A DNA stretch of 64,000 nt from Ruditapes philippinarum (Eukaryota), in the NCBI RefSeq assembly GCF_026571515.1, contig NW_026857783.1:50878-114877 (forward strand), in the 5' to 3' direction. Below the pieces are notes generated by a model. The model was not told the DNA's origin. It saw nothing but the letters and a program-made list of their open reading frames with translations, and did no database searches. The position numbers and the translations under genes are program-made. Below are positions 7,189 through 61,289 of the stretch, one piece after another (positions within the stretch are counted from its first letter, which is position 1; each line of letters starts with the position of its first letter).

Positions 7189-7995
7189 GACAGACAGACA
7201 GACAGACAGACGGACAGTGCACAACTAGGACTTGGTACTGATCATTCCTGTAAAGTTTGGATAAAATTGCACCAGTAGTTTTTATGAGTAGTAGGTCCGG
7301 ACAAGCTTTTTGCGTATCTGAAAAAAACACCTTTTTATCAAAGGGCCATAACTCGGCAAAAATCATTCAACCCGGAAAACCCGTGCAATATGCGCAAGGA
7401 AACTTGAGCTGATCAAATCCTGTAAAGTTTCATTGAAATTGCATGAAGTGGTATAAGAGAAGTAGTCCGGACAAACTTTAAAAATAAAAATTATTTAAAG
7501 GCCATAACTCTGACAAAAATCATTGGAACCGGAAAATGCTGACAATATGCACAACTAGACTTGGTACTGATCATTCCTGTAAAGTTTGGATGGAATTGCA
7601 CCAGTAGTTTATGAGAAGTAGTCCGGAACAAACTTTTGTGTATCTGGCAACACACAGAAAAAGAAACCTTTTAATCAAAGGCCATAACTCGGCCAAAAAA
7701 TCATTCAAACCGGAAAAACCCGTGCAATATACGGCGCAAGGACTTGAGCTACAGATCAATCCTGTCAAGTTTCATTGAAATTGCATTAGTGGTATAAGAG
7801 AAGTAGTCCCGGACAAACTTTAAAATTAAAAATTATTTAAAGGGCCATTAAAACTCTGACAAAAATCATTGAACCGGAAATGCTGACAATATGCACAACT
7901 AGACTTGGTACTGATCATTCCTGTAAAGTTTTGGATGAAATTGCAACCAGTAGTTTATGAGGAGTAGTCCGGACAAGTTTTGTGACGGACGCACG

Positions 7996-8042
<47 letters not shown>
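7189..8042. repeat. Tandem array (~340-bp unit with ~170-bp sub-repeat, 2.3 copies, 7218-7984) bracketed by (GACA)n microsatellites (7189-7217 and 7985-8042)
   Basis: Units start 'gcacaactag(g)acttggtactgatcattcctgtaaagtttgg' at 7218, 7549 and 7893. There are (gaca)7 on the left and (gaca/gacg)14 on the right. ORF 7982-8338 starts inside the microsatellite (DRQTDRQTD...). ORFs 7040-7366 and 7571-7768 are spurious. Confidence 0.85.
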
Positions 8043-10606: not shown

Positions 10607-13158
10607 CACGCCCGTTTAACTCACAACGAGTGAAAAATGTCCATCGGTTAAAATGTTGTGAGCAACTGCCGTTCCTCGTTGTGAGCACCCATCTTTGACG
10701 TGTGACACGATAAACAAGGTGAGTTTTTCATATTTTTTTAAGATTACAGACATTTATATAAAATATCGGAATGCAGTTAGCTAGCGATGTGTTTTTCGAG
10801 TATGCACATGTAAAGATATTGCCTGTTGGTCGACAATTTGATGGAAATATCGTGCGACTCAGTCACTCGGGGTAGCTGGAAAACTGGAGATATCTTCTCT
10901 CCGGACCAAATTTAACATCGAAAAACGTCGATTCTGGTGACGTTTTGTGCATTCTAACCTTAAACAGATGCCCACAAGTCTTCAGCGTAAATTATAATCT
11001 GAAAGTCTTCATAGAAACGAAGATATACCCCTTTTTGCTTTAATCCTCGTTGTAGCACCATAACCTCGTTGTGAGCAAGACAAGCGCAGTGCGTGTATGG
11101 TTTCAATATGTATTTCAGATGGTGAAAAATATAATTTTCAATCTACCAAAGCAATTTAAACGTTTTTGCACAGCAGCATTTCCTTGCAAAGACGTTGTGC
11201 ATACCCCAAAGGGAGTATTTATATTAGTTTTGAACTGTCCGTCTGTCAGTCCGTCAATCTGTCCGAAAACTAAACATTGGCCATAACTTCCTTATTAGTA
11301 AACGGATTTGATTCATATTTGAACACAACATTCCTTAGCACAAGACCTTCCTTTACGACCTGTATTTTTTACCTTGGCCCCTGAATGGCCTTACTTGAAG
11401 GTCAAATTGTCCCAAAACTTAAAAATTTGGTCATAACTTCCTTATTAGCATACGGATTCTACTCATATTTTGAAACAACACCCCTTTAGGCAAGACCTTC
11501 AAACTGATCTGTTTTTTTACCTTGTACCCTGAATGACCTTCTAGAACATCCAAAAACTTTAACATTGGTCATAACTTCTTAATAAGTAAGTGGAATTAGT
11601 TCATATTTGGACACAATGCCCCTTTGGACAAGACCTTGTTGAATTCGTGAAGTTGAAATTGTGAATTCATGAAGTTGAAATCGTGAATTCATGAAGTTGA
11701 AATCGTGAATTCATGAAGTTGGAATCGTGAATTCGTGAAGTTGAAGTCGTGAATTCATGAAGCTGAATCATGAATTCGTGAATTCCGTATTTTGAAAACG
11801 GTAATGCACGAAGTTTAAATTGTGAATTCATGAAGATGAAATAGGAAATTCATGAACTTGAAATGTCCCCACCGGTCTTTCGTAATACACACACATGTGT
11901 TTATCCTGAGCTGAAGACTGACCAAGTTATGTAAAACAAGAACTATCACGGTAAGTTGACAATGCCCCTGAAGTGCTGCTTTGTCCTTTGATTTATGGAC
12001 CAGATAGATTATTTGTTTTTGGACAATTAGATCTTCAATGTGAAGGTCATTCAAGGTCAAGGTGAAATAAATATAGGTCAGTTGGAAGGTCTTGTCCAAA
12101 GGGGCATTGTGTCCAAATATGAACTAATTCCACTTACTTATAAAGAAGTTATGACCAATGTGAATTAATTCCACTTACTTATAAAGAAGTTATGACCAAT
12201 GTTAAAGTTTTTGGATGTTCTAGAAGGTCATTCAGGGTACAAGGTAAAAAAAACCAGATCAGTTTGAAGGTCTTGCCTAAAGGGGTGTTGTTTCAAAATA
12301 TGAGTAGAATCCGTATGCTAATAAGGAAGTTATGACCAATTTTTAAGTTTTGGGACAATTTGACCTTCAAGGTAAAGGCCATTCAGGGGCCAAGGTAAAA
12401 AAATACAGGTCCGTAGGAAGGTCTTGTGCTAAGGGATGTTGTGTTCAAATATGAATCAAATCCGTTTACTAATAAGGAAGTTATGGCCAATGTTTAGTTT
12501 TTCGGACAGATTGACGGACTTACAGACGGACAGTTCAAAACTAATATGCCTCCCTTTGGGGTATGCACAACGTCTTGCAAGAAAACGCTGCTGTGCAAAA
12601 ACGTTTAAATTGCTTTGGTAGATTGAAAATTATATTTTCACCATCTGAATTACATATTGAAACCATACACGCACTGCGCTTGTCTTGCTCACAACGAGGT
12701 TATGGTGCTCACAACGAGGATTAAAGCAAAAAGGGGTATATCTTCGTTTCTATGAAGACTTTCAGATTATAAGTTACGCTGAAGACTTGTGGGCATCTGT
12801 TTTAGGTTAGAATGCACAAAACGTCACCAGAATCGACGTTTTCAATGTTAAATTAGGTCCAAAGAGAAGTTGTCTCCAGTTTTCCAGCTACCTCGAGTGA
12901 CTGCGTCGCACGGTATTTCCATCAAATTGTCCACCAACAGGCAATATCTTTACATGTGCATACTCGGAAAACACATCGCTAGCTAACTGCATTCCGATAT
13001 TTTTATATAAATGTCTGTAATCTTAAAAAATTATAAAAAAACTCACGTTGTTTATCGTGTCACACGTCAAAGATGGGTGCTCACAACGAGGAACGGAAGT
13101 TGCTCACAACATTTTAACCGATGGACATTTTTCACTCGTTGTGAGTAAAACGGGCGTG
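10607..13158. mobile_element. Large foldback (FB-like) element: ~1.03/1.07-kb inverted arms (10607-11637; 12088-13158) around a 450-bp spacer holding a 22-bp minisatellite
   Basis: The arms are near-identical reverse complements from 'cacgcccgtttaactcacaacgagtgaaaaatgtccatcgg' to its rc 'ccgatggacatttttcactcgttgtgagtaaaacgggcgtg'. Each arm has 3 copies of a ~150-bp subrepeat ('ggccataacttccttattag..'), a (gaca)-like tract and many 'ctcacaacgag' mini-palindromes. The spacer 11641-11866 is (gtgaattcatgaagttgaaatc)n with EcoRI sites. ORFs 10483-10698, 11071-11286, 11815-12099 and 12436-12621 are spurious. Confidence 0.9.
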
Positions 13159-15059: not shown

Positions 15060-15780
15060 TTGTGACGAATCACCACGAACGTCATGACAATATGAGCCGC
15101 GTCATGACAAAACCAACATAATGGGTTTGCGACCAGCATAGATCCAGACCATCCTAAAACAATTATTTCGTAAATTTGGTAATTGTTTAAAGGAACATTA
15201 TGCCTCAGAAATGATTTTATTTCTATTTCTCTAATCCTTTATTTTTGGTGTTCTGTTTAGTGTTTCTTCAAATGTACTCGTAGGCATATTACTGGACTGT
15301 CTTTTACTACTGCTGCTTTTTGGCAATTACTATTATTTTAATTTTAGTGACTTAGTATTTGGTATGGAAGTCAAAATACTACTTTGTTATCATTTTGCTA
15401 CTTTTATGACAAATAATTTCACTTTCATTGTACTTCTACAGTGAAATGCATCTATATGCTTTTAAACCGTTACTAGTATTTAATCCTTACAAAACTAGTG
15501 TTTACCCTTTCTAAAGAATGGAAAGTATATTCCTTTCTAAGGCAAAATGTGTCTTTAATAAAACAGAAATAAACGACACGATATACACTTTAATCTTTAG
15601 TAAACTCTCCAAAATAGATATAATTAAGCAGATGATTTTTAAATAACAGATGCTGTAAGATGCAATAAATCTTCGTTTGATTTCTAAACGAACGCGTGGT
15701 ATAGTAATTATACTGTCTGACAACAAATCAAAGGGCTGCAAGTACTATTCTCTTCTACTAAAATTACAAATATTTTCGGG
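15060..15780. repeat. Paralogous block A: the uninterrupted copy of the sequence at 27040-27235 + 29010-29420
   Basis: Long near-identical stretches, e.g. 'ggtatggaagtcaa[a/c]atacta', 'gaaatgcatctatatgcttttaaaccgttactagtatttaa', 'aaacgaacgcgtggt[a/g]tagtaattatactgtctgac'. Copy B is split by ~1.77 kb of LINE sequence. Confidence 0.85.
15093..15150. mobile_element. Hairpin-MITE family, truncated copy (left arm only)
   Basis: 'gagccgcgtcatgacaaaaccaacataatgggtttgcgaccagcatagatccagacc' matches the left arm of the full copies at 29715-29931 and 61083-61289. Confidence 0.7.
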
Positions 15781-16139
15781 GTAAGAGTTTAAAGCAGCAT
15801 ACTTCTAGATTCCTGCTAATTCATGCGTTAGTCAATAGTCATACTATAGAAATATGTTGATGAATTCTGCAAGATCAGTTTTTATCGCAGATAACTTGTA
15901 AAATCATAATTTGAATGTTTTAATCCTTTTATCTTTTTTTTTAATTCTTAGTACATTTTCCTCATGCTTGATTTTCTTGAAATATTTTTCGCTCATATGG
16001 AGGCATGCAGCTTTAAACCAAGGCCCGGTATATGCCATGTTGTACACTTCAATAAAACTTGCATATTTATGGATGTATCTTGGACTTTTTTCCGATGAAA
16101 ATGATACTTATATCGGTCAAACGAATTAGATTGATCCCA

Positions 16140-16640
16140 TGTATTTTCTAACTTTAATTTCGTAGGATCATCTACGAGCAAACATAAGAATGTCACTGAG
16201 CCATCGTATTTTCAGCACCTACTGTACAATCGACCATCCAACACACAAAGGGTTCTCTCGATTTTAAATAATGTATTGAAGAGTGTTGAAAATATTTAGA
16301 GGATATTTATGGTGGCTGATTTGTGCCATTCGTTTTTCGCCTGTGTCTCCGCTAAGCGAAAGTTAAAATTGCGGGGGAGCGGAGCGAAAACATGCTAATA
16401 AGCGGGCGCGGGGGAGATAAAAACATTACCGAGCATAAAGCAACTAATGTGATGTAGATATTCAAAAAGCTATATCAATAAATAAATACCATTGAAATCA
16501 ACCAAAAGGTACTACTTGCAAATATTATTCATAATAAAACTTCTAAGTATTTTGGATAATTGAACTTTGGAAGCATCAGTGTCAACAATATCATCTAAAA
16601 TAATACTATACATGTATATATATAATTTATGGTCAAGAAC
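16140..16640. repeat. Paralogous block A': copy of 30890-31740
   Basis: 'gtcactgagccat(t)cgtattt', 'ggatatttatggtggctgatttgtgccattcgttttt(t)cgcctg', 'aaagcaactaatgtgatgtagatattcaaaaagctatatcaataaataaatacc' are shared. Copy B carries an extra ~295 bp at 31200-31495 flanked by a duplicated 'aat[ac]aa[gt]cg' motif. Confidence 0.8.
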
Positions 16641-17663
16641 AGTGTTTAAAAAGACATCATAAGTAGCGGTAAACAAAATGATTCGATGATATTAACGACA
16701 AAAAAAAGGTATCAAATACCAGTAAGGTTAACTGGCGGTTAATTAATTTATTAAACAGCAGTTTCAAATCAGAGATGAGGTGGAAAGGTTGTTACAGAAA
16801 AAAGAATAGTAATTTTATCCCCTGTTAAGAAATCTGTTCACGATTTTGAACTTGCTAACTTGATGCAATATGAACACACAAAAATTGCTGTGACTCTATA
16901 TTCAGAGAAAATCATTTTTTTTCAGTGCCTGGTGTTTATCTTTTCATTTTCTCTTTCAAGAGTAGCTTTCTACTCTACTTTTTTAGGTTAAAATAATTTT
17001 ATACAGTGGCAAATATGTATCACACAAATCTAATAACAACCATTTTTTGAATTTGCAATGACATCTAAATTGGAAAGGTGAACACAATATAATATACCTA
17101 CATTTTAAATATTTTTAAAAGATACCATTTACAATATTCTACGTAATTGCGGTTTATTTTAGTATAATCCATACTGAAATGCTTTCATGGTCATTAAAAA
17201 TGTTTTTTTTTAAAACAATTTCTACTGATATGTAGATGCTCAGTTAGCTTAATTAAACAAACACGCCTAAAATCAACGAAAAGGTATTACTTACAGATAG
17301 TAGTCATAGTAACTTCTTAGCCTTTGGAGGCATCAGTGTCAATAATCTTTTACTGAAATGATACTTTATGGCATTTAGAAATATTTTAGGATAACTATTA
17401 CATTTTTTTACGATCAAGCACAACATATAAATGTCATCATTAGGTGACTGTAACAGTAAACAAAATATACGGTGATAATCAACAAAGAAATATGGTATCA
17501 AATTCCAAAAGAAAGTTCAGGACAAGGTTGACTACCGGTTAATTAGATATATAGATAAATTAAAAATGCGATATCAAATCGAAGATGAGGTGGTTTGTTT
17601 TAGACTGTATAAATATGAAATCTCACATACTTATATTTTACTTAAAACTTTGCGTTTAACAAA

Positions 17664-19058
17664 ATGGAAGTTTTACAGCTATTCTTTTATTTTAGGTGTG
17701 TTCTCATAGTGAAAGGACTTAACAACATGCTTACTAATGAATCGTTATCAAATTACAACAATTCAGATCTAGTGTCTACTTTGATAGCAGAACAAAGTCG
17801 AATCTGCCCTTATATTGCTTTGTGTCATGCATCAAACAGCTCTTCTTTTCAATTTGATAGATCTATGAGCAAATTACCGTGCTGCAAGGCATGTTCGTGT
17901 CAGGACACTTGTGTTCAAGAAGGTTCTTGTTGCCCGGATTATTTCAATGCAGAAGGTATAGATTTTAAGGAAAACCAGACATCACATGATAATAATAAAA
18001 AACCTGTTAGTGCCAGTGCTAACACGACGTTAACACATACACAAGAATGTGTTAAAGTACAACATGGTCGAATACAAAATCAAGACGGTTACATGATGGT
18101 AGCATCATGTCCACCCAACTTTGACGACATTGAAGTAAAAAGGAAGTGTGAAATGAAGATACATCATAGCAACCCCTTCGACATAATTGACAACGTCCCA
18201 GTAACATACGAAGATCAAAGACAAACATATAAAAATCAATACTGCGGACAATGTAACTTGCAAGAAGATGTATTTCCTACATTTTGGCATGTAACGCTCG
18301 TGTGTGATATACATTACTTTTCTTTCAAGTCCATTTCCGCGGTTAATCAATTTGAATTCATAGAGGCCGTTCTATTTACAATGCCTGGGAAGTGTAACGT
18401 AGTCTTTGAGTATGAAACTACAAATATCAGCTTAAATGCAGAACTTCGACAGTGTACATACGACACAATGATCGATAACTGCATCAAAGAACATTCGAAC
18501 ACCTTTCTTCAAACAATGTGCAAGAACTATTTCTGGACTATTACGGTGCAAGTCATTTCTGAAAGAAAAATATACAAAAACTATGCATGCCTGCTCTGTA
18601 ATGAAATAAGCTTCAGGGATAGATGTACAGTAAACCAAGAACTCAAACCAGTTGTTATTCAATTTACATCTATTTTGAACATCACTCGGAAACCATCAAC
18701 TTTCGTCGATACTTCGAAAGATGAACAACATATTATCAATCGTTATTTTCCAAACACAGACGGGGAAATTCGCTGCAAAAAAGGATTCGCACATGATATT
18801 AGAAAGGTATTGAAAATAAAAAAAGTTGTATCGAGTATGTCTTTGTACCCATTGCTTTATTCAACAAACACTTTTGTTATGATTATGAAAATACCCGGAA
18901 CTCCATTAAAGTATGCTATTTTACGTGGCGTCCTGAGTCAGGCTTATTGTTTTTCTCGTTTAGGGCACACGCTTTTTATTACTTGGGGACCTTACGCCGC
19001 TTTTCATGGAATGGCACGGAAGTGTCACATTGAAGGTTCCATGATAACCACCGTATGA
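17664..19058 (+). CDS. Uninterrupted 464-codon ORF for a cysteine-rich (27 Cys) protein with N-terminal hydrophobic leader and a somatomedin-B-like motif (CCKACSCQDTCVQEGSCCPDYF). Probably a large exon or single-exon gene for a secreted/extracellular domain
   Basis: It is the longest ORF in the window, and 1.4 kb without a stop is very unlikely by chance at ~66% AT. The C-x-C-x3-C-x5-CC-x-D-Y spacing matches the SMB domain pattern, with N-glycosylation sequons and a hydrophobic C-terminal stretch. Antisense ORFs 18105-18350 and 18432-18662 are spurious. True start and possible splice exits (e.g. AAAG|GTATTG near 18806) are unresolved. Confidence 0.5.
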   Translation: MEVLQLFFYFRCVLIVKGLNNMLTNESLSNYNNSDLVSTLIAEQSRICPYIALCHASNSSSFQFDRSMSKLPCCKACSCQDTCVQEGSCCPDYFNAEGIDFKENQTSHDNNKKPVSASANTTLTHTQECVKVQHGRIQNQDGYMMVASCPPNFDDIEVKRKCEMKIHHSNPFDIIDNVPVTYEDQRQTYKNQYCGQCNLQEDVFPTFWHVTLVCDIHYFSFKSISAVNQFEFIEAVLFTMPGKCNVVFEYETTNISLNAELRQCTYDTMIDNCIKEHSNTFLQTMCKNYFWTITVQVISERKIYKNYACLLCNEISFRDRCTVNQELKPVVIQFTSILNITRKPSTFVDTSKDEQHIINRYFPNTDGEIRCKKGFAHDIRKVLKIKKVVSSMSLYPLLYSTNTFVMIMKIPGTPLKYAILRGVLSQAYCFSRLGHTLFITWGPYAAFHGMARKCHIEGSMITTV

Positions 19059-19262: not shown

Positions 19263-22083
19263 ATTAAAGAAAGTGCAACGACTGCGTGTGCACACGTGAT
19301 ACTCTACGTAAATGCATGATTTTGTCTCTGCTAATGTATACGTGCGTGCGTACTACTTTTTATGCATGCAAGAATATAGTTCATTTCATGACTTAGAAAA
19401 ATCATATATAGAAAATTATTCTTTTAATGTAATAATGCAATATTTTTTATCATTTTTCTTGTCTCATATACAACATTTTACAATAATTCTAATGGTATAC
19501 CAAAACAGTATACACTGTTGGGCTTTTCAAATTACTGATTATCCCATTAAACTATTATGATTACTGGTATATACCTTAGATGCATTGTTTTTAATGTAAC
19601 AAAATGCTAATAGGCCTGTTTTCCGACTTTCCAAACGCGATTCAAAACAATAAACGGACATTTACTTCAACATTTTACCCGTTCCTGTTAAATAAAGAGG
19701 TCATGATACACATTTGTCTTTTCAATACTAAGTTTATTTGACGGCACCTCGGCCATTATAAGTGATAAAGTTGTTTGTCTACTACTCCATTTCTATTCAG
19801 TATAGTACTCAACAATATATAATAACAGCAGTAAGCAGTCAATGGTATATTAGGTATTATGCATTTTTTAAAACTTATTCCAATTAGTTTGGGAACTTTG
19901 AACCTCTACGTAAACAAATCTTGTTAAAACACCGACACAGCAAATAACAACAAAAAAAACAAACATTGTATCATAGATGAAACTGATCAACGTTTACGGT
20001 AAACACGTAACCTATTGATCATGCATAAAATGCAAGTCTTATTCTTATAGATTAAGCGTCATTGAAATTGATAAAATGTAATATTAAGCTAGCATTAGTG
20101 TAATGGTTGGGTTATATATTTATCCACAACTGACTTTTTAATTGTAGGATGTATGCCGACAACTTTTCATAATTTTTCTTCTTTTCAAGATAGTATATGA
20201 CACTTTTTTTCAAGTATTGGGAAATTTCACCATCCAATTTAAATTGTTAATTTTCAGTGCCACTACCCCTTTTGCACATTTGTAAGGAATTATTTTTGGA
20301 TATGAAATAATTTTGTTTCTGGTAGAAATTACCTATGTTTTTGCTTTTATTTGGGGCCGATACTATTTTAAAAAAGTGATTTTAAGTAACAAGTGACCAT
20401 TTTTCTTTACATCTTTTGTCATCTTGAAAAACAAATCCATGCGCATAAAAGAGGCCCCCTTTTCACAGGCTCAAAAATGGCACATCTTTTCTAACAACTA
20501 AAACAATTTTTTAAATGTAGGTAATCTAATAAGACTTAAATCAAAAGCATCTTCAGATATATTGCAAATAGTCTTGTAAAGTGTCAAAAATAGAAACCAA
20601 GAAGAACTTTCTCCATTAGTAAAAGGTCAGAAATTATGTCATAAATTGCATAAAACGTTAATCTATAGTATATAATAATAATATGCATGAGATTTTATAA
20701 ATATTTTTGTGTGAAACGCACTGTATTTGAAGACAATTTAATGAAAGTGTATAAAACTATATATTCTGGTGCCAGTTGTGAAAAAACTTTTGAGTTTTGA
20801 AAAAGGATACAAATATGAAAGAAATTAGTCAATATATTTTGGATGGTAAAAAATCTTCCATAAATAGCAAAATAATACTTTATTATGGAATATTTTAATA
20901 TGTTTGTATACAATAAACTATATGTGTTTTATGACACAGACATTTTTTCTAAGAACTCGTTTTAGAAACTACTGCAAGATTATTGAAACATCATAATTTG
21001 AATGTAAAAATATTTCATTAGGTAAAGCTTATTTATTGTACCAATTAAATAAAATAAAAATAATAAACCTCTCAATTATTTGATTCAATATTGATATCAA
21101 AGTTTAACCCGTCAAATATATGTAAAAAGCTGAATATCAATGAAAGCAAAGTTATTTACTAGATTCTGTCAAATATGATACTAATGTCGTTGAAAAAAGT
21201 ACTCACTGTGGCATATAATGGAAAAAAGACGTTTAAAAATGTCTAGCTTGTCATCAAATTAAAAGAAAGAAAGGCAGTGTTTAACATTGTCCTAAATTTA
21301 TTTATCGGTTGTTTTTATATATTTTTTTCTTTTCTTATCTTGAATTCTGAAATACTATACCCATAAGATATGTAAAATTATATTTTACTTCAAGGCAATA
21401 AGGTATGCTATAAAAGACATTTCATACCACATTAGAAATTTCTTCCTTACCTAGATACACAATCCAAATCAATAAAAACATTGTGCGTCCTACTGCAATA
21501 ACATTGCCATCATATGTGTAATAATGTGTTCCGATTATACACGATTTCTCTTTGTTCCTATTACAGATTGTAAAAGTAAATAAAATTATTCAAAATATCT
21601 TAAACATTTAAGTTAATAACGTATAAAGTTAATCAGGAAGAGATATGCAAGGTTGGCGTAAATGATATCTGTAAAATCATAAATACTAGTAAAATGTGTG
21701 CGTTATTCAAAACGTGATATAAATTTTGATTAAGATTGTAAATTCAATTCTTATTTAGCTTTTTGAAGAGATCTTGAATACTCGTTTATCATTGACATAA
21801 CTGATAAGGGCGATAAATCATGCATCGGAAGAGCATTTCAAAAAAGATCAAGTTGGACTGTGGGAGAGATTCAGAATAAATATAATTCAGAAACTAATTA
21901 AGCAGTGTTATCACCAATGTGGTTTATAAAACACATTAAATTTTAATATGTTTTTTCTTGTTTTTTCCTTTTTTGTCATTTTTTCAGTTTTGTTTACAAA
22001 AATAGTTAATTACAACTTTTTACTTACTCCTTTCTACGAAAGCCTAATAATATCAAATAAAACAAAAAATAAAAATGCAAAGG

Positions 22084-23668
22084 AGTTATAACGCGTCTAA
22101 AGGCGTTATTATGCGAATCAAAAGGCAAAATTACGCGAAACAAAAGGTGTGATAACGCGAAAAAAAGCGTAACAACGGGAATAAAGGCGAAGTAACACGA
22201 ATATAGGCGTTATAACGCGAATCAAAAGGCATGCTTACGCGAATCAATGCGTAATAACGCGAATAATTGCATAGTAACAAATAAAGGCGTTATAACGCAA
22301 ATCAAAATGTGTATTAATGCGAATAAAAGCGTTATATCGCGACTCAAAAGGCGTAATAACGCGAATGAAAAGGCAAAGTAACGCGAATAAAAGCGTAATT
22401 ACGCAAATAAAGGTGTAAGTATGCGAAAAAGGACGGAGTTACGCGAATAAATGAGTAGTATCGCGAATAAGGGAGTTGTAAGGCGAACCAAAAGACGCAA
22501 TAACGCAAATTAAAACGCATTATAACGCCAATTTAATACCGTATTTATACTAATCAAATGGTCCAATAACGTGAGAAAGGAAGAACAATATTGATCTGAT
22601 TTTTTTGCTCAAGATATAAACTACTGTATAATAACATAATATACATTAATAATAAATATTATTCTATTTGCACAGTAATAATGTAAACTATTTGTCATAC
22701 ACTAATGAAGACTATGTGAGATTTGTCAATATAATGTGACATGGTGACTCATGGGTCCATTAGGCTCGAAATAAATACAGTTACTCTAAATTCACATGTA
22801 TCACATCATTGATTTTACACATGTCACTATTTTATATGTGGGTCATAATTATGTTATTATCTACGGATATGTCCTGTATAATAACCTAATAACCTGTAGT
22901 ATCTTCTCATTATGTGGTTGTCGCTCCTAATACAGTTAAAGGTAATAGGCTATAGGTAAGGAATTGGAAGAAACGTTAGGTATAAGTAAGTCACATAAGG
23001 AATGAAATTGTATCTTAATTATTGAAATGGTGATAATGTTTCGGTTAATTCAGTTAAAATCATAAGTCATAGGGGCCATTGTTTTCTTTGTCTTTGTAGA
23101 AAAGTATCGACTAGTTGGCTTTGAAGAAATGTATCTAATAGTTGGGTGATAGTTAATCACTTATTTGGTAAAAGTCTTTCCTAATAAGAGATTAATAATC
23201 AGACTGTGGTATTAGGACGTATCCGTGAAGAATTGAAAATAAAACGCAAATCTTGATCAATTCACTTAGATCAGCATTGTTCTTTCTTTTTTACATTACC
23301 AGGCAACTTATAATAATTTATATGGTATTGAATAAGTGTTATAACGCCTTTCGTTTTGCGTTATTTCGCATTATTTCGGTTCGCGTTATAACGATTTTAT
23401 GTTCGCGTTATAACGGCTTTGGTTTCGTGTTATAACGCCTTTTAATTCGCGTTATAGCGTCTTTTTTTTTTGCGTTATTTAGCCTTTTGATTCGCGTAAG
23501 TACGCCTTTCGATCAACGTTATAACGCTTTTGTATGCGTTATAACGCGTTAATACACCTTTTGATGCACGTTATTACGCTTTTTTGGTTCTCGTTAATAC
23601 ACCTTTTTTGCGTAACTACACCTTACGCCCTTATTTCGCGTTATTACTCCTATTTGCGTTATAACGTC
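22084..23668. repeat. Foldback-like structure: two inverted arrays of a ~15-bp minisatellite (22084-22540 forward; 23337-23668 reverse) around an ~800-bp spacer
   Basis: The forward arm is (aaaggcgttataacgcgaatc)n-like. The reverse arm is 'gcgttataacgcctttcgttttgcgttatttcgc...'. ORFs 23253-23435 and 23534-23941 are translations of the repeat. Confidence 0.85.
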
Positions 23669-23972
23669 ATGTGTCCTTTATACTTCATCCTTGCCGACGG
23701 GATATGTGTACCGCTATTCGCAAAACTACATAATGTGCATTACCTTATTTTACTGCAGGCAGATGTTGTATCTGCGTCGGGGAATTTCCACGACGAAGAA
23801 ATAGAAGTTGCTCTTCTAACAAGTGGGCTTGATAATATATTAAGTGAACAATTAGGTGATGCACTTTTAAAGTTCTCTATTTGGAAGGACGAGAATTCGC
23901 CTTTGAAGCGCCAGTTTTTTTGTAGTTATTACTGTAGCTGAAAATTGTGATAATGGAAGTTTTATAAACATT

Positions 23973-26138: not shown

Positions 26139-26865
26139 ATGTAAAATCTTACGGGTAACTGTCATCATCATTATCATCATTTGTATCATCTTGTGATGGC
26201 ATCTGGATGTTTAGCTTTTTACAGATATTGTGTCACACAGCACATGCAATGACTACCCTTTAATAGACGTAGGACAATAGTTAAATGTAAAAAAAATCCC
26301 AAAAAGTCTGTCTTTGGTTTATCCTTACCTGATTTTTGAATTACAAAATTAACATAACTCATGACAGTTTTAAGTATTTTTCTTTTACAGTAACTAGATA
26401 AATATGTTCTTAATTTTTAGGTTTATAGTTGGTTGACATGCAATTTTAGTAACTACGGTTATATTGCTTACAACTGTTCATATACCATCATACTTAATGC
26501 AAAACATCAAATTCATTGTTAAAATTAAAAGATGCCCTTTCTTTGGGTGATTTTTTTTCTGCAAATAATAGTATTAATGTAAAGATAATTACTTTTGAGA
26601 AGGTATAAATTTAAGCATTTTGACTGGTATTTGTAGGGACCTTATTTACAGCATGTTGGTGATAGTTCTTAAATTCTAAATCTTGATCAATGGCCTATAA
26701 TTTTATGGTCAAAGTTATATAGACATTTTATATATTATATATTGATATTTTTTAAAGCTGTTTGTATATATAATGGAGGGTTTTATTGCCAAGAACCATT
26801 TATGTATGGGTTCATAACATTTCAACATTTTTACATCCAATATTTTTACAACCAATCCAGACCAT

Positions 26866-27027
26866 GCGTCCGCGAAGTCTGATCAGAATCCATGCCGTTC
26901 GCTTACAAACCCTATTACAAGTAGAGAAACTGATGGCGAACAGCATGGATCCTGATCAGACTGCGCGGATGCGTTGGCTGGGCACCCATTATGTTGGTTT
27001 TGTCATGGCGCGGCTCATATGTCGTAA
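26866..27027. mobile_element. Hairpin-MITE family copy (left arm truncated)
   Basis: Right arm '...ggatcctgatcagactgcgcggatgcgttggctgggcacccattatgttggttttgtcatggcgcggctca' is complete. ORF 26786-27049 is spurious. Confidence 0.75.
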
Positions 27028-27234
27028 TTTGATAAAGGCGTGTCCGTGAAGCATATTCTTAAACATTTATTTCGTAAATTAAGTAACTGTTTGAAGGCAT
27101 ATTATGCCTCAGAAATGATTTTATATCTATTTCTCTAATCCTTTATTTTTGGTGTTCTGTTTAATGTTTCTTAACAAGTACTCGTAGGCCAATTGCTGGA
27201 TGCTGCCTTTTGGCAATTAGTATTATTTTAATTT

Positions 27235-29010
27235 TAGTTCAAAGTTCAAATTTTATTTACAAATCAGCATTTTGTTTTTGCCAATACATACAAAACATAT
27301 ACATACATAGATCTTGAAATATAGCACACATAACTACAAGATACATATATAAACATTTCAAATATCAGTATTAAATTAACAAATAACAAAGTAGTGTTAA
27401 TAATATATCATTAATTTCGTCTATTTATCATTTGTTCCATGGTATTAGATCGTAAATCAAAAGCTTTTTCCAAGTACTTACTTATCAGTAATAATCTATG
27501 TTTATTATTAGATGACTTGATATAATAAAACTTATTCAGTGTGGGAAAAGATGCATTACGAATAAAAAGTTTTCTTAATTCTGAATAAAATGGACAACAA
27601 AGCAGGAAATGATATTCTGATTCTATCATGTTTCGACTACAAAGTTTACATATTCTCTCATTTCTGTTTAAACCTATATATCTGCCAGTTTCAATTTCTA
27701 GAGAATGGAAACCAAGTCTGAAACATGTCAAACGTTTTCTTAACTTGTCATTTTGTATCAATTTAGATATTCCTCAAAACAAAAATTTGATTTGAAATTT
27801 CTAAAATAAAAGAGTTTTGGCATGTTATTTATTTGCTCATGCCAATTTTGTATAATTGATCTCTAAGGCGTTGTTTAAAAATTAAGCTAAAATCAGAAAT
27901 AACATTATAGTTATGTAACAAATATGAAAATCCTAACTCATTAATAATAGTATGAGCTTGCCTAGCTCAGCATTTATTAACACATTGATCTAAATACATG
28001 CTATATATAGGCGAATGCTGATTATTAACAATTTTATTCCAAATCTTTAATGATCTTTCTTTACACAAAATTGACAAAGGAAATTTACCAAGTTCTCCAT
28101 AGACAGCACAATTAGGAGTTTGTTTTTAACACCAAGTACATACTTATAAAATTTTATTTTCAGTTTATCAATATCTTTATATTTATAAATTCCCCATACA
28201 TCTGAACCATATAACAGAATTGGAGTTATCAGACTATCAAAAAGGTGCAGTTTAGTTTTAACATCTAGCTTTATCTTGTCAAAAATACCCAATAGACTGT
28301 TATATGCTCTAAGGCCTTGCTCTGCAAGAGTCTTAGTTGCTTCAGAAAAGCTACCCGTATAAGAAAATTTTACACCTAAATATGAAAAATTATCAACAAT
28401 ATCTACAAACTGACCGTCAATATTTATACTAAAATTATGTACAGATTTTCTTCTTTCAAAAACACAAACTTTAGTTTTATTAACATTAATTTTAAGCCCC
28501 TATTTTGACGAATAACTATATACATTATCAACTTGAGCTTGCAAGCTCTCTGGACTTGTAGTGAAAAGCACGATATCGTCTGCAAAAAGTAGCAAATATT
28601 TAGACAAGAATTCAAGGTCACTATTCGACATTTTGTTAAGATCTATACATTTTTCAATATCATAAAAAAAGAATAAATAGCAGGGGAGATAATGGCTCTC
28701 CTTGCTTTAACCCAAGAGTTACGTCGAAAAATACTGACATATTCATAAAAGCATTAATTTTTACACATGACACTACTAAGACAAATATATTGCCTTTAAC
28801 ATATTTATCATTTTACAACTAATACCAGTATCTAACAGCTTAATCCATAACGCATCTCTTATAACTGTGTCAAAAGCCTTTTCATAATCAATGAAAATAC
28901 AATAGAGTTTAGAATTTTTGCTAAAACTTTCTGAATTATGGAATGAAGAATAAAAATAGCATCAGAGGTTGATCTCGAATCTCTAAAACCAAGCTGAATA
29001 TATAGTGATA
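27235..29010 (-). mobile_element. 5'-truncated CR1/L2-like LINE fragment (RT plus C-terminal zinc-knuckle), inserted into paralogous block B
   Basis: Minus-strand ORFs give RT motifs: 'SRSTSDAIFILHSIIQKVLAK' (28859-29080), 'LFDSLITPILLYGSDVWG' (28047-28292), and the tail 'LTCFRLGFHSLEIETGRYIGLNRNERICKLCSRNMIESEYHFLLCCPFYSELRKLF' (27411-27761). The 3' end on plus coordinates (27250-27330) carries an (atacata)-type microsatellite, as CR1-like elements do. The flanks 27040-27235 and 29010-29420 are contiguous in block A. Confidence 0.85.
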
Positions 29011-29714
29011 AAGTATTTGGTATGGAAGTCAACATACTATTTTGTTTACATTTTGCTACTTTTATGACAATTAATAACACTTAAAGTGTTACTTCTGCAG
29101 GTGAAATGCATATAACATGCTCTAAAACCGTTACTAGTATTTAAACATAACAAAACTCGTTTTTACTATTCTAAAGAATGAAAAATGTATTCCTTTCTGA
29201 GGCAAAAAGTGCCTTTAATAAAACAGAAATGAACGATACGATATACACTTTAATCTTTAATAAACTCTCCAAAATAGATAAAATTAAGCAGATGATTTAC
29301 TGTAAGATGCTATAAATCTTCGTTTGATTTCCAAACGAACGCGTGGTGTAGTAATTATACTGTCTGACCTCAAATCATAGGGCTGCAAGTATTTTTCTCT
29401 TCTACTTCACTTTAAATAACAAATATTTTAACTTTGTTGGTTTGCCGTGAAACCAAACAAACAAATTCAAATAATGTGATTTGTTCAATTAGTGATTACC
29501 TTCTTTATTTGTGAGAAGAAGCGCTCAATGAGTACGTTACCAGATGTGAGTATGGTGATCAGTGAATATTGTTCACAGGTTGAGTAGTTTGCATATGATG
29601 AGTATTATTCACTTTTTAACATTGTTTATGATGCAAAAAATGTTCAATCCATCATGTATATGTGGTGACGTTAAGTCACGGAAAGACAAGTGTTCAGTGA
29701 GCTTTTTCGTGAAA

Positions 29715-29931
29715 TGAGCTGCGTCATGACAAAACCAACATAGTGCGTTTGCGACCAGCATGGATCCAGACAAGCCTGCGCATCCACGCAGTCCGATCAG
29801 GATCCAAGCTGTTCGCTATCAGTCTCTCTACATGTAATGGGGTTGGTAAACGAACAGCATGGATCTTGATCAGACTGCGGGATCCATGCTGGTCGCAAAC
29901 GCACTATGTTGGTTTTGTCGTGACGCGGCTG
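29715..29931. mobile_element. Hairpin MITE, complete copy
   Basis: 'tgagctgcgtcatgacaaaaccaacatagtgcgtttgcgaccagcatggatccagac...' folds back on its rc '...ggatccatgctggtcgcaaacgcactatgttggttttgtcgtgacgcggctga', with arms ~100 bp. Both flanks read 'gaaatg'. ORF 29743-29967 is spurious. Confidence 0.85.
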
Positions 29932-30154
29932 AAATGCAGTTGTTTGTTGCAGCAGATACAGAAATAATGGCATTGCAGCAGAAACAACAAGTTCTTAACG
30001 CTGAGTATTGGAACTTGAAACTTGTAAACTTGTAGTCAGACAGCGTTTACAACTGCACGACAGCGTCAGAGTTGATCTTTGATGTTTGTTTATAATGAAT
30101 ATCACATTAATTTTCAACAGATTAGTTTAAATTTTAAAAGCTAAAAAGTTGATC

Positions 30155-30675
30155 TCTCCAGTACTGTGGCATAGAGGTGACATTGTCAATTTTATTTTAT
30201 CTCGTGGCCACGACTTATTATCTTGAGGCCTCAAGATATTATATCGTGACCACGACTTATTATCTCATGGCCACGACTTATTATCTCAAAATATTATCTC
30301 GTGGCCACGAGTTACTATCTTGTGGCCACGAGATAGTAAGTCGTGGTCACAAGATAATAAGTCGTGGCCACAATATAATAAGTCATGGCTACGAGATAAT
30401 TATGTCGTGGCCACGAGATAATAAGTCGTGGCCATAAGATAATAACTCGTGGCCACGAGATAATATCTTGAGGCCACAAGATAATAAGTCGTGGCCTCAA
30501 GATAATTACTCGTGGCCACAAGATAATAAGTCGTGGCCACGAGATAATAACTCGTGGCCACTAGATTATAAGTCGTGGCCACGAGATAATATCTGGAGGC
30601 CACAAGATAATAAGTCGTGGCCACGAGATAAAATATAACTGCAAATGTCACCTCTATGCCACCGTACTCCAGGGG
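30155..30675. mobile_element. Palindromic-minisatellite foldback/MITE: ~30-bp TIRs around a self-complementary array of 22-bp units
   Basis: TIRs are 'tctccagtactgtggcatagaggtgacatt' and 'aatgtcacctctatgccaccgtactccagg'. Inside, (tcgtggccacgacttattatc)n switches to its rc (gtcgtggccacgagataataa)n at a symmetry centre near 30335-30345, so the whole ~520 bp is one long hairpin. ORFs 30177-30693 on both strands (LVATTYYLVA..) are spurious. Confidence 0.85.
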
Positions 30676-32029
30676 CTCTCTTTTTACTGTCATTTCGTAA
30701 GTATTTTTGTATCTTTACGCGTACCTTTAAACTTCATAAAATCATAAGTGTATTCCACAAAACGTTTACTTTAGTTTTTTCTTAAATTTACGTTAAAATA
30801 GTTCGTAATCTTCAATGCAGGTTTTAAGAATTATTCAATAAGTGGCATTTTTGAAATATTTGATAAAATAAACTGTTCTATTAGACAATCAAACTTTATC
30901 AAACTAAACTTTAATATCGTAAGGTCATCTACGGACACCGAAGAATGTCACTGAGCCATTCGTATTTTTAGCGCCTGCTGTACCATCGGCCATCCATTAC
31001 ACAATGGGTTCTCTCGATTTCAAATAATGTATGCATAGAGTGGTAAAAAGAACCAATAGCTTTTATATTTTGAAAATATTTAGGGGATATTTATGGTGGC
31101 TGATTTGTGCCATTCGTTTTTTCGCCTGCGTTTCCGCCATGGAAAAGTAAAAATGGCGGGGCGCGGAGCGAAAACACGCTAATCAATCGGAACATCCTTG
31201 GCTATTATCTATAAATAACCTCAGAAACAATACGGATTGAAAGTAGTTCTACCACGTATAATAATGTACTGTTTGCTTTTGTGTCTATGAATTCACTTAT
31301 TTTAGGTGGACTTCTAATACATATTTTGAAAATCAATTTGTCAATAACTCCCATCATTAAAATAATATTTGTTTACATGCGTAGGTAAGACCAAAATACC
31401 GCATCCGTTCTTTGTATTAATTCATACCATTGTGTTCGAGGTCCTTAATCGAAGAATGACGAAAAGGGCCGAAAATTTGCGATTTCACTTAAATAAGTGC
31501 GCACGCGGGGGAGATTAAAACATTCACCGTCGCCTCACGGAGCGAAAAGCAACTAATGTGATGTAGATATTCAAAAAGCTATATCAATAAATAAATACCC
31601 TTGAAATCAACTAAAAAGTACTACCTGCAAATATTGTTTATAGTTAACTTTTTAGTATTTGGAAAAATTGAACTTTTGGAAGCATCAGTGATCATTGTCA
31701 ACAATCTCATCTAAAATAATACTATATATATATATATATATATATCCAGAATACGAACCAAATACAACGATCCGTTAGCGGCGCATTTTTATACGAACGA
31801 CCACACAGTAAATGATTTTTCAATAATGGGGCTTGAAAAGCTATACGGGAATGAACAATACAGAAAAACAATAGAAAATTTGTGGAAAAATAAATTAAGA
31901 ACCTATAGACCGTATGGAGTTAATACAAAAGAATAACGCGGCAGACGGCAACCAACGCCACGGCGGGCGTCGTTCATTGACGTTACGTCACTTCCATTGT
32001 TTTGTTTTGATATATTTGTATATAGGGTT

Positions 32030-35270: not shown

Positions 35271-38200
35271 GTAAGTGAAACAATGTGATCATTTTCAAAT
35301 TAAAGCTGCATGCCTCCAGATTCATGCTAATTTTCATGAAAATTGTGAGAAAGTATTTCGTACAAATATTGCAATCGGCACTTATAATTCAAGCAAATTA
35401 CCAGAAAGGTCAAAATATGCAAAAATAGCCCTTACTGCGTTAAACGCAGTAGAAATATAGTAATAAATACTGCAAACTTTGTCTTTAAACGGACGAAACA
35501 TTTAAACTGAAACACAAATCTTGACTCTTTTTACCTTTCATAAAGCAGCGCGCCTCCAGATTCATGTTAATTTTCACGAAATGTTGGACATGTATTTAAA
35601 AAGTAAAATATTGTGAAGTGATCAAAGAAAGTAATTTACACATTACAAACAGCTTTTTGAATCCACGCAAATTATCAAAAAGTGGTCAACATGTGCAAAC
35701 ACAGCCCTTACTGCGTTAGTAACGCTGTAAATATATGGTGATAAAATACTGCAAAATCAGTCTTAAACCGCACATTACATGTCAAATACAACTTGTTACT
35801 GGAATGTTTTTACCTCTTAAAATTCTAGTATATTTTCTTCATTATTGGTTATCTTGAAATATTTTGGCTAATCTGGAGGCGTGCAGCTTTAAAATCTTAG
35901 TACATTTTTATTATGTTTGCATGTTTTGATATATTTTGGCTCTTCTCAAGACATGCAGCTTTAATATAATATAGTCATTATAATAACAGATCAGTGGGTC
36001 ATTAAAGGTTAAAGAGCATGCTTTAAAGACTGTCTGTCTTTTGTGAGCTATAAAAAAGGGTAAATAATTCCTTTCCTCCCATGGTATTTATGTCTTCCCT
36101 GTAATAAGAGTTATAAGCAGTTACATGAAAATCATTGATGCAAAAAAATCATTGATGCAAAGCATCAAATGCGACGCCAAGAAATATTTGATCAAGACTT
36201 GCACCTAAATACTTAACAGAGGAGGTGTACTTTATATTGATCATAACCATTACATGTGACCTGGAGGATAGGACCCTGTTTAAAGATGCGTCAAATATAA
36301 CCAATCACTAAAATTCTCATGCCAAAAGAGAAAATTTCTTCAGATTTATTTTACCAGATACAAGGATAACTGAGTCATTATCATATAATAAAATATTGCT
36401 TAGGGTTACAGAAATACCATTGACAAATATTAGACATAAAAGAGGACCTAAAATAAACCTCCTTGGAGACACCATAGGTACTCGGAGATCTAAGTGCCTT
36501 TATACTGCTGTGAATGGGACCCAAAGGTAAATAACCATTCGCAAATTAAAGAATACATGGTTGATCATTATAATGAAGGGAAATGTTCCTTCTATTTTGT
36601 ACAAGAAGGAAATAATTTTATTAAAATGATAAAAACCATGTTATCTTCAACACATCAAATACTTTTTGAAATTTATTTCAAACAAGTACTATCGTTTGTT
36701 AAATGCTAGTACGAGAAGATAATCTATTTCAGACTTCTCTTGCAGAGCTGTATAACCGTGGAATTAATTACTACGCGATGTTTCATGTTTTCTTTTTAAA
36801 AACAGGTTTTAAATCTAAGGAGTCAATTTGAATATTTCAGTCCACTTTTACCCAACTTATCTGCATTTCTTCTACAACAGTACATACATGTACTGCATGG
36901 AATATCTTCTAAAACTTCCACAGATAAATACCTATATATAAATGGCATATCTCCTAATCTATTACTATCGTGGTCTGAAGTTTAAACTTCACTTTGAACA
37001 CTCCTTCTTTCTTCTTTTAAGATACATGTATGTATGTTTTTGAAGTGTTTCATTTTTCTTTTCTTTTCTTTTTTAAAAAATAATTTACTAACTGTAGGGA
37101 AACCTCTTTAAAATTTGCATTATTCACAAGAAATGGTATTTTTACTTTCCTTGCTATTTAGGAGTACTTTGAAAGGCGGAAGTCTTTGAAGTCTAAAGTA
37201 TTCCTTTTACACTTAAATGTTGATTCTTGTTTTAGTATGATATGACAATGCCTGGGTAGAATCTAATCTTATCAAGCTGTTTATTGGAAGGACTGAGGAT
37301 GTGCTTGTATAACACCCTATGGCAAATTACACCATAAACATTTTGGAAAGTCATAAATTACATAAACTACTAGCAAAACTGTTTAAGATACACACGGCTC
37401 ATCAAATTATTTTATGATTTCTAGAAAGAAACAGAATCTTTTTTATCCTACCATTAACATATATAGCATATATGTCCTAGTCAGTCTCAGTTTGAGAATT
37501 AAGGATTATCAAATATTGTAATTTAAAAAAATAAAGAAACAACTATTAATTATTAGAAAAGAACAGATCATCCTTTTATTTGTAAATAGTACATCATTAT
37601 ATTCCATAGACCATACAATTTCCAAGCAAATAATGATCATACTATTTGTCTCTAAAAATATCGTAAACTATTTGTACTTTATTCATAAAAAGAGTAGATC
37701 AACAAATTCGTAAAATCAGTTAAAATATTTACTACTGTCCATTTAGTATTTCAAATTATTTACCTGGTTATTATAATAACACCAATAAAATATTTCTATT
37801 TCTATCATTTTCAACATAAATCTTATAATGAGGTTAAATTGATAGAAATTATTAATTTTACAAAGTACAAAAAGTAAAAATAATAAATTAATTATTAAAT
37901 TTATAAAATGCTATTTAAAACATTCCTTAATTAAACGGCCACATTCGCTGCCGCAGCAGCGAGTATTTGTGGGTGTGACTAATCAGTGATGTAAAACTGT
38001 TAGGTCTGTTATAAACCCTGAACTATAAATAGCATGCAGTGTTAACCTGGAACAAAAACAGCTGATTTTACACAGGAGAGGTTTAATGGATGTTTTAATA
38101 TAATTTTTGAAGTCATTTTTTCTTCTTTTTTTTTCACTGGAATGCTGTATGTTTTCATCAAGTCAGACAATTATATCAAAATCCAAAAGATGTGCCTTAC

Positions 38201-49525: not shown

Positions 49526-49689
49526 TATAATAGACAGTTACTTTTAATTGTACAGGTATATTTGCTTGGTTTTTTAACATGTTATTTTTTGTATTTTATA
49601 ATTTTTGCTCTTTTTAAGCCAATGGCCAAGTAATATCTGATGATACCCATGTACCCTGAAACATTCGTGTTCTTCAGTAATCATATCCT

Positions 49690-50445
49690 ATACATTCATT
49701 TTCTTACTTAGTCACGCCCCTTACAATTATTTTCATGGTCATGCCATGTAGATCTATTTTTCTTACTTTTCATAGACTGTACATCCATATTCTTACACGG
49801 TCACCTTCTTTACAAAGATGTACTTGGTCACGTCCTGTACATCTATGTTCTTACTTGTAATATCCTATACATTTATGTTCTTACATTGCCACGTCCCTTA
49901 CAAACATGCGCTTGGTCACGTCCTGTACATATATATTCTTACCTGTAATGTCCTATACATTTATGTTCTTACATGGCCACGTCCCTTACAAACATGTACT
50001 TGGTCACGTCCTGTACATCTATGTTCTTACTTGTAATATCCTATACATTTATGTTCTTACATTGCCATGTCCCTTACAAACATGCGCTTGGTCACGTCCT
50101 GTACATCTATGTTCTTACTTGTAATATCCAATACATTTATGTTCTTACATTGCCATGTCCCTTACAAACATGCGCTTGGTCACGTCCTGTACATCTATGT
50201 TCTTACTTGTAATATCCTATACATTTATGTTCTTACATTGCCATGTCCCTTACAAACATGCGCTTGGTCACGTCAAGTACATTTATATTCTTACTTGTAA
50301 TATCCAATACATTTATGTTCTTACATGGTCACGTCTCTTACAAGCATGTACTTGGTCACGTCCTGTACACATATATATTCTAACCTGTAATGTCCTATAC
50401 ATTTATGTTCTTACAGGGTCACGACTCTTAAAAACATATAATATA
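49690..50445. repeat. 88-bp satellite (~8.5 copies), with an extra diverged ~1.3 copies at 51950-52065
   Basis: Unit 'cacgtcccttacaaacatg[ct][ga]cttggtcacgtcctgtacatctatgttcttacttgtaatatcctatacatttatgttcttacattgc'. ORFs 49818-50592, five overlapping, are spurious. Confidence 0.9.
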
Positions 50446-51039: not shown

Positions 51040-51560
51040 CTGTCACAGAACTGGCATTTTCATTTCAATACATCTAAATTCTGGAAACAAAGTGATCCCT
51101 CGGAAACATTAATTACAACAAATTAACATAAGAATTTCAGACTCGGTTTGATTGAGTCTGTACATGAGGGATAATGTATAAGTGCAACATCCCTCACACC
51201 CCCTAGCACCGGCTGAGCGGTACTCAATTCTCAACACTTTATAGTGTTGGCATCAATGACCCCGAAGGACCAGAAAATATAACAACACTGAACTTTTTAC
51301 GGCTGCCACACGGCACTTGACACCTGCTGTTGTGAAGTACAAAATTCTGGAAACAAAGTGATCCCTCGGAAGCATTAATTACAACAAAATAACATAAGAA
51401 TTGCAGACTCGGTTTGATTGAGTCTGTACATGAGGGATAATGTATAAGTGCAACATCCCTCACGCCCCCTAGCACTGGCTGAGCGGTACTCAGTTCTCAA
51501 CACTTTATAGTGTTGGCATCAATGACCCCGAAGGACCAGAAAATATAACAACACTGTAGT
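51040..51560 (+). mobile_element. Tandem pair of ~290-bp elements whose 3' ends are hairpin + 7 nt + CTAG (Helitron-terminus-like), diverged relatives of the 4309/19134 repeat
   Basis: '..cagactcggtttgattgagtctgtacatgagggataatgtataagtgcaacatccctcaca(c)cccctagcac[ct]ggctgagcggtactc..' at 51131-51240 and 51391-51500. ORF 51239-51475 is spurious. Confidence 0.55.
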
Positions 51561-61082: not shown

Positions 61083-61289
61083 TGAGCCGCGTCATGACAA
61101 AACCAACATAGTGTGTTTGCGACCAGCATGGATCCAGACCAGCCTGCGCATCCGCGCAGTCTGATCAGGATCCATGCTGTTCGCTATCATTTTCTACTTG
61201 TAAAAGGGTTAATAAGCGAACAGCATGGATTCTGATGGGATCCATGCTGGTCACAACGCACTATGTTTGTTTTGTCGTGACGCGGCTCA
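61083..61289. mobile_element. Hairpin MITE, complete copy
   Basis: 'tgagccgcgtcatgacaaaaccaacatagtgtgtttgcgaccagcatggatccagaccagcctgcgcatccgcgcagtctgatcaggatccatgctgttcgc' plus its rc arm, ending 'cgtgacgcggctca'. Same family as 29715-29931. Confidence 0.85.

Follow-up and report, generated by a model that had tools for sequence, protein, structure and literature searches.

The window, a 64-kb stretch of the Ruditapes philippinarum genome (contig NW_026857783.1, positions 50,878 to 114,877), carries a repeat structure at positions 30156-30672, in AT-rich surroundings (about 32% GC) with many other interspersed repeats. Two opposed arrays of a short tandem repeat are enclosed there by a pair of inverted ends, and the same 6-mer directly adjoins the structure on both sides. 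Its parts are listed below in window coordinates; the arrays and the pivot were delimited unit by unit (unit table).

30156-30161, unstranded: left target-site duplication CTCCAG, the 6-mer that directly adjoins both ends
30162-30184, plus strand: left terminal inverted repeat (TIR) TACTGTGGCATAGAGGTGACATT, with the tip TACTG, a mutated TACGG; 22/23 matches to the right TIR
30185-30201, plus strand: left AT-rich linker, which separates the TIR from the first repeat unit; TIR and linker together match the right end at 35/40 positions
30202-30319, plus strand: left arm array, period 21 in Tandem Repeats Finder (TRF)
30320-30331, unstranded: pivot unit TTGTGGCCACGA, the palindromic core where the spacers change orientation
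30332-30626, minus strand: right arm array; its 14 cores run from 30341 to 30615 and have spacers of the GATAATAAG type
30627-30643, minus strand: right AT-rich linker, mirror of the left linker
30644-30666, minus strand: right TIR AATGTCACCTCTATGCCACCGTA, with the tip CCGTA, which is TACGG on the other strand; 22/23 matches to the left TIR
30667-30672, unstranded: right target-site duplication CTCCAG, the same 6-mer as on the left

Ends, arrays and folding of the element

The 29-mer at the end of the structure occurs exactly twice, in inverted orientation and with 0 and 3 mismatches (0 expected by chance), and the ends are present as one copy within the 64-kb window. An earlier note on this DNA had taken the pair for 30-bp TIRs. 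The inverted pair is real, but it resolves into the 6-bp direct duplication CTCCAG and, inside it, a true TIR of 23 bp, TACKGTGGCATAGAGGTGACATT (TACTGTGGCATAGAGGTGACATT compared with TACGGTGGCATAGAGGTGACATT). A flanking direct repeat was found at n=6 only, and n=4, 5, 7, 8 and 9 fail. CTCCAG is considered a target-site duplication rather than part of the TIR because the bases outside TAYGG are unrelated in all relatives described below; being intact, it demonstrates a discrete insertion at this site. The element proper thus spans 505 bp. It has the structural features of a MITE, i.e. a length below about 800 bp, TIRs, a target-site duplication and no coding content, its only ORFs being encoded by the repeats themselves (e.g. 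YYLVATT.., SWPRDNK..).

The array has a period of 21 bp according to TRF, and not of 22 bp as had been proposed, with 4.3 copies at 30197-30287 and 15.8 copies at 30299-30631 (75-81% matches across 30197-30631, 81% for 30299-30631). Each 21-bp unit consists of the 12-bp palindrome TCGTGGCCACGA and a 9-bp AT-rich spacer. The presence of a palindrome in each unit, already described in the earlier note, is confirmed by 13 occurrences of TCGTGGCCACGA with at most one mismatch, all of them within the element in the 64-kb window, against a chance expectation of 0.01. Unit by unit, the array parses into 20 cores: five with a spacer of the CTTATTATC type, the pivot, and 14 with a spacer of the GATAATAAG type. 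The cores of the left arm begin at 30202, 30223, 30244, 30265 and 30299, with a core-less partial unit of 13 bp at 30286-30298. The reversal of orientation is therefore genuine, and it lies at the pivot core (centre 30325/30326), between a preceding L-type spacer GTTACTATC and a following R-type spacer GATAGTAAG, rather than at about 30340. At this pivot the two arrays meet head-to-head, without a middle domain, and the units of each arm point away from that arm's own end.

The arms are unequal in length, with 164 bp on the left (5 units and the partial one) and 341 bp on the right (14 units). A higher-order duplication of 126 bp (6 units) is evident in the right arm, where identity at a lag of 126 is 0.87 compared to 0.78-0.83 at other multiples of 21. 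CpG transitions account for 14 of the 24 core substitutions. We read the window copy as one that decayed mainly through CpG transitions and was altered by array expansion.

Folded as single-stranded DNA, the region 30130-30700 yields -202.5 kcal/mol (z = -33). The self-complementary fold of roughly 520 bp that had been noted is thus present, but it is not perfect, given the unequal arms and a best gapless pairing, between 30142-30287 and 30541-30686, of 146 nt at 86%. In the fold of lowest energy, which is branched, 30142-30290 and 30541-30686 form an outer stem, while surplus units of the right arm fold on themselves. Because the core itself is palindromic, an array of the 21-bp unit in one orientation already matches its own reverse complement with 75% identity, so that part of the hairpin signal would exist without any orientation switch; the right arm by itself folds at -77.9 kcal/mol (z = -14.8). 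The unequal and imperfect arms argue against easy cruciform extrusion. A microRNA or other structured RNA gene was considered and rejected: the top match in an Rfam scan, MIR6217, reached 72 bits against a gathering threshold of 110, and all matches were below threshold. As they fell on both strands and on many unrelated hairpin families, they appear to be generic hairpin matches.

Duplicated segments and other repeats in the window

The element lies in the second of two segments, A (15151-16624) and B (27055-31740), which represent a non-coding duplication, 78-84% identical in blocks and with stops in all frames. Segment A contains no copy of the element, as the earlier note had stated, but the element's flanks (B 29429-30907, against A 15776-16150) could be aligned neither to A nor to any other part of the 64-kb window, which leaves no empty site at base level. 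Insertion or expansion after the duplication, which had also been put forward, is plausible since A is without the element and B has gained two other inserts not seen in A, but is not demonstrable in the absence of an alignable empty site. Segment B carries in addition a LINE-like insert at 27239-29002 (RT-like ORFs, minus strand) without counterpart in A, and a palindromic MITE at 29714-29930 that is absent from A. The latter, 230 bp upstream of the foldback element, is one of several copies of a self-complementary MITE-like repeat of about 215 bp, also found at 26863-27018, 61083-61287 and 15092-15155. Another MITE family, with ends AAAGCTGCATGCCTCCAGATTCATGC.. and ..CTGGAGGCATGCAGCTTTAA, occurs in the window at 15790-16016 and 35293-35964, and at 418-690 of L006, one of the loci described in the next section; one copy lies in a part of segment A that is unalignable to B, and another interrupts the foldback copy of L006.

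Several further repeats were noted. A second foldback-like element at 22035-23690 consists of units of roughly 21 bp, AAAGGCGTTATAACGCGAATC, with the palindromic core CGTTATAACG, arrayed at 22080-22545 and in inverse orientation at 23320-23665, with some 780 bp of middle domain between the two arrays. Its left tip TACGAAAGCC resembles the tip TACGGAAGCC of locus L010; decay has affected the right tip, and a target-site duplication could not be resolved. The structure is possibly a further relic of the IS3EU type discussed below. The 2.55-kb inverted repeat at 10607-13158 has 1-kb arms that are 95% identical, termini CACGCCCGTTT.. and ..AAACGGGCGTG, flanks TTATTT/TTATTT, 150-bp repeats in its interior and a 22-bp array (TGAATTCATGAAGTTGAAATCG); it is another foldback-like element, larger and younger. 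Tandem repeats of 157/342 bp between (GACA)n microsatellites at 7189-8039 have a layout like that of the satellite-like arrays associated with oyster Helentrons. An 88-bp tandem repeat (8.5 copies) and a 266-bp repeat (1.8 copies, 97% matches) are found at 49683-50437 and 51076-51556, respectively, and the 266-bp repeat family also interrupts the foldback copy of locus L007. Finally, 17664-19058 contains an ORF for a cysteine-rich protein of 464 aa, which has only three database relatives, all distant, whose precomputed Pfam annotation is DUF8401.

Related copies in other assemblies

The same ends and architecture were found in 13 contigs of unrelated marine metagenome or host assemblies. All 14 arrays, including that of the window, have a period of 21 bp and cores of the form CGT-N4-ACG, the array cores of the family being TCGTGGCCACGA, ACGTGCGCACGT, TCGTCGCGACGA or TCGTTCCCACGA. 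A metagenome scan with the 19-mer TIR core as query matched four contigs, all from metagenome Ga0224511, and the full architecture is present in three of these (L002, L004, L005), in the order 22-nt end, 21-bp units TTACGTGCGCACGCAATAGCT, palindromic loop, inverted array and inverted end. Because the arrays are often miscalled as ORFs, such spurious ORFs served as bait for further copies: they were used to query a protein collection, the contigs behind the matches were retrieved, and nine loci were kept as family members. The earlier note had made its reading depend on recurrence of the TIRs elsewhere, and these contigs and loci provide it.

The subfamily of the window element is carried by L006, L007 and L011, from JGI sample 3300049158, and all three are one-armed or interrupted. 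L001, likewise from this sample, is 92% identical at the DNA level to window 17578-18875, so that the sample holds a close relative (sister species) of the host. By the ORF-bait route, L008-L010 and L012-L016 were likewise obtained, here from marine and host assemblies in ENA, with more diverged subfamilies in L009, L010 and L012-L016; the cores of L016 have decayed to TCATTCCCTCAA. The full order of TIR, array, middle domain, inverted array and TIR is seen in L012 (1671 bp) and L010 (2135 bp). Some sister copies carry middle domains of 1-1.8 kb. Many are one-armed, which makes the canonical structure of the family uncertain. A middle domain shared by L006 and L011 after their arrays was considered and discarded, only about 25-36 bp being common and the rest of L006 being a different MITE.

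Many relatives feature a CCAAT/ATTGG motif at the inner array edge, often fitting the NF-Y-like consensus RRCCAATCAG (L006 at ~400, L011 at ~806, L012 at ~4870 and ~4922, L013 at ~4230, L014 at ~2880 and ~3185, and L015 at ~3280-3330). The window copy does not have this motif, which is possibly the promoter remnant of an autonomous element.

The ends of the family are well conserved. The 22-mer TACGGTGGCATAGAGGTGACAT forms the ends of the copies in L002, L004, L005, L006 and L011, the right TIR of the window element is 100% identical over 23 bp to the TIRs of L002 and L004, and its right-end TIR and linker closely resemble the TIR, linker and first core of L006 (by eye, with mismatches uncounted). 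The terminal sequence is TACGG or TATGG at 14 of the 15 termini tabulated, and additionally in L007, L009 and L010; the tips of the window element are TACTG on the left, one substitution from TACGG, and CCGTA on the right. Inverted ends of more than 30 bp are present in the window (35/40), L013 (40/40) and L012 (58/60, by hand count of the two 60-nt ends). The target-site duplications compare as follows.

Window element: CTCCAG/CTCCAG, perfect
L010: GTTTTA/GTTTTA, perfect; element of 2135 bp
L013: ATTTTC/ATTTTC, perfect; element of 490 bp with TIRs identical at 40/40 positions
L012: CCCTTC/TCCTTC, 5/6; element of 1671 bp
L014: TGAGGG/TGAGGG, perfect, beside a 6-bp deletion of the right tip
L005: GTTATC/GTTAAA, 4/6; old copy

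Among lengths of 4 to 9, n=6 alone gives a match in the window, L010 and L013. In L002 the left flank does not match the right flank.

Neither the TIR nor a two-core pattern matched any of the viral contigs scanned, and the TIR scan of bacterial and archaeal genomes was likewise without matches. The sole match of the two-core pattern in bacterial and archaeal genomes, in Planobispora siamensis, is an unrelated GC-rich local duplication. The 21-bp satellite CgiSat43 of C. gigas (TAATAATAGACCCACAGCATA) was also dismissed as a relative, its sequence being unrelated. No transposase or autonomous copy was found in the 64-kb window or in any retrieved locus. A transposase search of the middle domains and neighbouring ORFs of L010, L012 and L014 found none either, a weak RVT_1 fragment beside L014 being the sole match.

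Superfamily assignment and origin of the architecture

Non-autonomous DNA elements are classified in Repbase by the length of the target-site duplication and by terminal sequence (PMC4455052). IS3EU elements have TA..TA termini and duplications of usually 6 bp (Kojima 2023, PMC10045372), and fungal IS3EU elements also generate 6-bp duplications. GingerRoot elements have 5'-TA...TA-3' termini with mostly 6-bp duplications, and homologues occur in Crassostrea gigas, corals, fish and other marine animals (Cerbin et al. 2019, PMC6839031). TAYGG..CCRTA termini combined with 6-bp duplications have been published for IS3EU/GingerRoot (PMC10045372; Kojima 2025, PMC12730594). Both features are found here, and as the ends and duplications of the complete copies match the published signature, we read them as IS3EU/GingerRoot. 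The 505 bp at window 30162-30666 are thus very probably a non-autonomous DNA transposon of the cut-and-paste type, foldback in architecture and most likely of the IS3EU/GingerRoot superfamily. As no transposase was found, it is the termini and the length of the duplication that carry this assignment. The view of the locus as a mobile-element relic of the MITE/foldback kind is upheld by the TIRs, the target-site duplication and the recurring family, but the label of a new MITE/foldback family goes too far where the superfamily is concerned, since TACGG..CCGTA with 6-bp duplications is the IS3EU/GingerRoot signature.

Further likenesses to IS3EU/GingerRoot are TIRs exceeding 30 bp with linker, frequent single-TIR or truncated copies, and occurrence in oysters and other marine animals. 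Described members of this superfamily are mostly autonomous or gene-carrying, with a length of 4-13 kb in GingerRoot and simple TIRs of 100-150 bp, whereas the window element is 505 bp long and non-coding, and has arms made of tandem 21-bp units with palindromic cores. No description of foldback or subterminal-array IS3EU elements was found in the literature searched. The MITE-like and Helentron elements of bivalves (pearl, CvA/CvE/CvG, Helentron-N) are likewise short and non-autonomous with a tandem-repeat core, and are scattered in non-coding DNA of marine bivalves (PMC7492417, PMC11136912). However, bivalve Helentron-type elements have monomers of about 160 bp and Helitron-type ends without TIR or target-site duplication, unlike the window element with its 21-bp units in two opposed arrays, its TIRs and its 6-bp duplication.

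The closest architectural parallels are with Drosophila FB and Tetris, which have inverted arms of short tandem repeats, unequal or variable in length, an optional middle domain and no ORF; arms of this type have the potential to seed satellite DNA. Galileo (P superfamily, PMC3573991) also has long, internally repetitive, Foldback-like TIRs on a non-Mutator backbone, indicating that foldback architecture arises convergently, and differs from the window element in superfamily and termini. With so similar an architecture, the element could be imagined as a classical Foldback (Drosophila FB, Tetris, Tm1; Mutator/Phantom-related) or Galileo member moved by a MULE- or P-type transposase. The duplications make this very improbable: they are 6 bp long in every resolvable copy, compared to 8-10 bp in Tetris, taken as Mutator-like, and 7-8 bp in Galileo and the P superfamily. 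Membership in FB/Tetris was rejected because the window, L010 and L013 show no match at n=7, 8 or 9, and membership in Galileo or the P superfamily because neither n=7 nor n=8 gives a match in any of these three intact copies. The termini are unrelated to those of Tetris and, as TAYGG..CCRTA, match IS3EU, and the Tetris paper itself notes independent evolution of foldback structure across lineages. It is less improbable, but still unlikely, that the element derives from another superfamily capable of 6-bp duplications, as an atypical hAT, Dada or Polinton-end derivative, for no transposase was found to decide the matter and duplications are 6 bp in Polinton, 6-7 bp in Dada and 5-8 bp in some hAT elements. 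The termini here are TA..TA, or TAYGG, and not AG..CT as in Polinton or YARNG as in hAT. Dada targets specific small-RNA genes, whereas the targets here are varied non-coding sequences (CTCCAG, GTTTTA, ATTTTC, CCCTTC, TGAGGG), and it is for IS3EU that exactly TAYGG..CCRTA with 6-bp duplications has been published.

Explanations that dispense with transposition fare no better. An immobile palindromic minisatellite, grown in place by expansion and a small inversion, would be in keeping with the higher-order duplication and slippage in the array and with the 75% self-complementarity of a one-orientation array. Such an origin is scarcely credible for a structure with specific 23-bp inverted ends outside the array, flanked by a perfect 6-bp direct repeat, and with ends and arrays that recur at unrelated sites in no fewer than six further assemblies, where each copy has a 6-bp duplication of its own. 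Assembly errors are also common in inverted repeats and minisatellites, and the locus could be imagined as an artefact in which a foldback read was chimeric or a repeat was collapsed or wrongly joined; the unit counts given here are exact only as assembled and could contain errors. Artefactual palindromes are near-identical, however, and the arms here are 80-86% identical, unequal, and differ by CpG-type substitutions. With TIRs and target-site duplication intact and the architecture recurring in independent assemblies, an artefact is very improbable.

As an IS3EU/GingerRoot-type element, the window copy would have been mobilised in trans by the integrase-like DDE transposase of an autonomous relative, which would recognise the TAYGG tip together with the conserved GG(K)GACAT box and would cut the target with a 6-bp stagger. 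It is tempting to speculate that the palindromic cores offer the transposase or a cofactor a series of subterminal sites for binding; with 21-bp phasing they lie two helical turns apart and thus face the same side of the helix. Every diverged subfamily retains CGT-N4-ACG and the 21-bp period, even though inserted copies lose their CpG-rich cores fast. An argument for palindrome binding from a TetR-like HTH was dropped, as the published remark concerns IS481EU and not IS3EU. After insertion, the window copy would have changed neutrally through CpG deamination, slippage or unequal exchange, and slippage or unequal exchange may account for the larger right arm and for the partial loss of one unit on the left.

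A wider reading, which we regard as possible but rather doubtful, is that the family represents a foldback-type IS3EU/GingerRoot lineage new to the literature and spread across marine invertebrates; that foldback architecture has arisen in it on a separate occasion, in a third superfamily of transposases besides Mutator/Phantom (FB) and P (Galileo); and that the CGT-N4-ACG cores are, in source copies, selected functional transposase-binding sites rather than incidental minisatellites.

An odd “perfect hairpin” has thus become a classifiable transposon insertion with defined ends and a footprint, and the boundaries available to annotators are corrected. Such elements mark spots where assembly, read mapping and possibly replication or recombination can fail, and are useful as presence/absence markers between closely related species. 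If the family-level reading is true, they would provide a compact non-autonomous substrate for IS3EU/GingerRoot, a little-studied integrase-related superfamily; TCGTGGCCACGA at every 21 bp would be a candidate protein-binding motif open to biochemistry; and the family would represent a further case of convergent foldback architecture.
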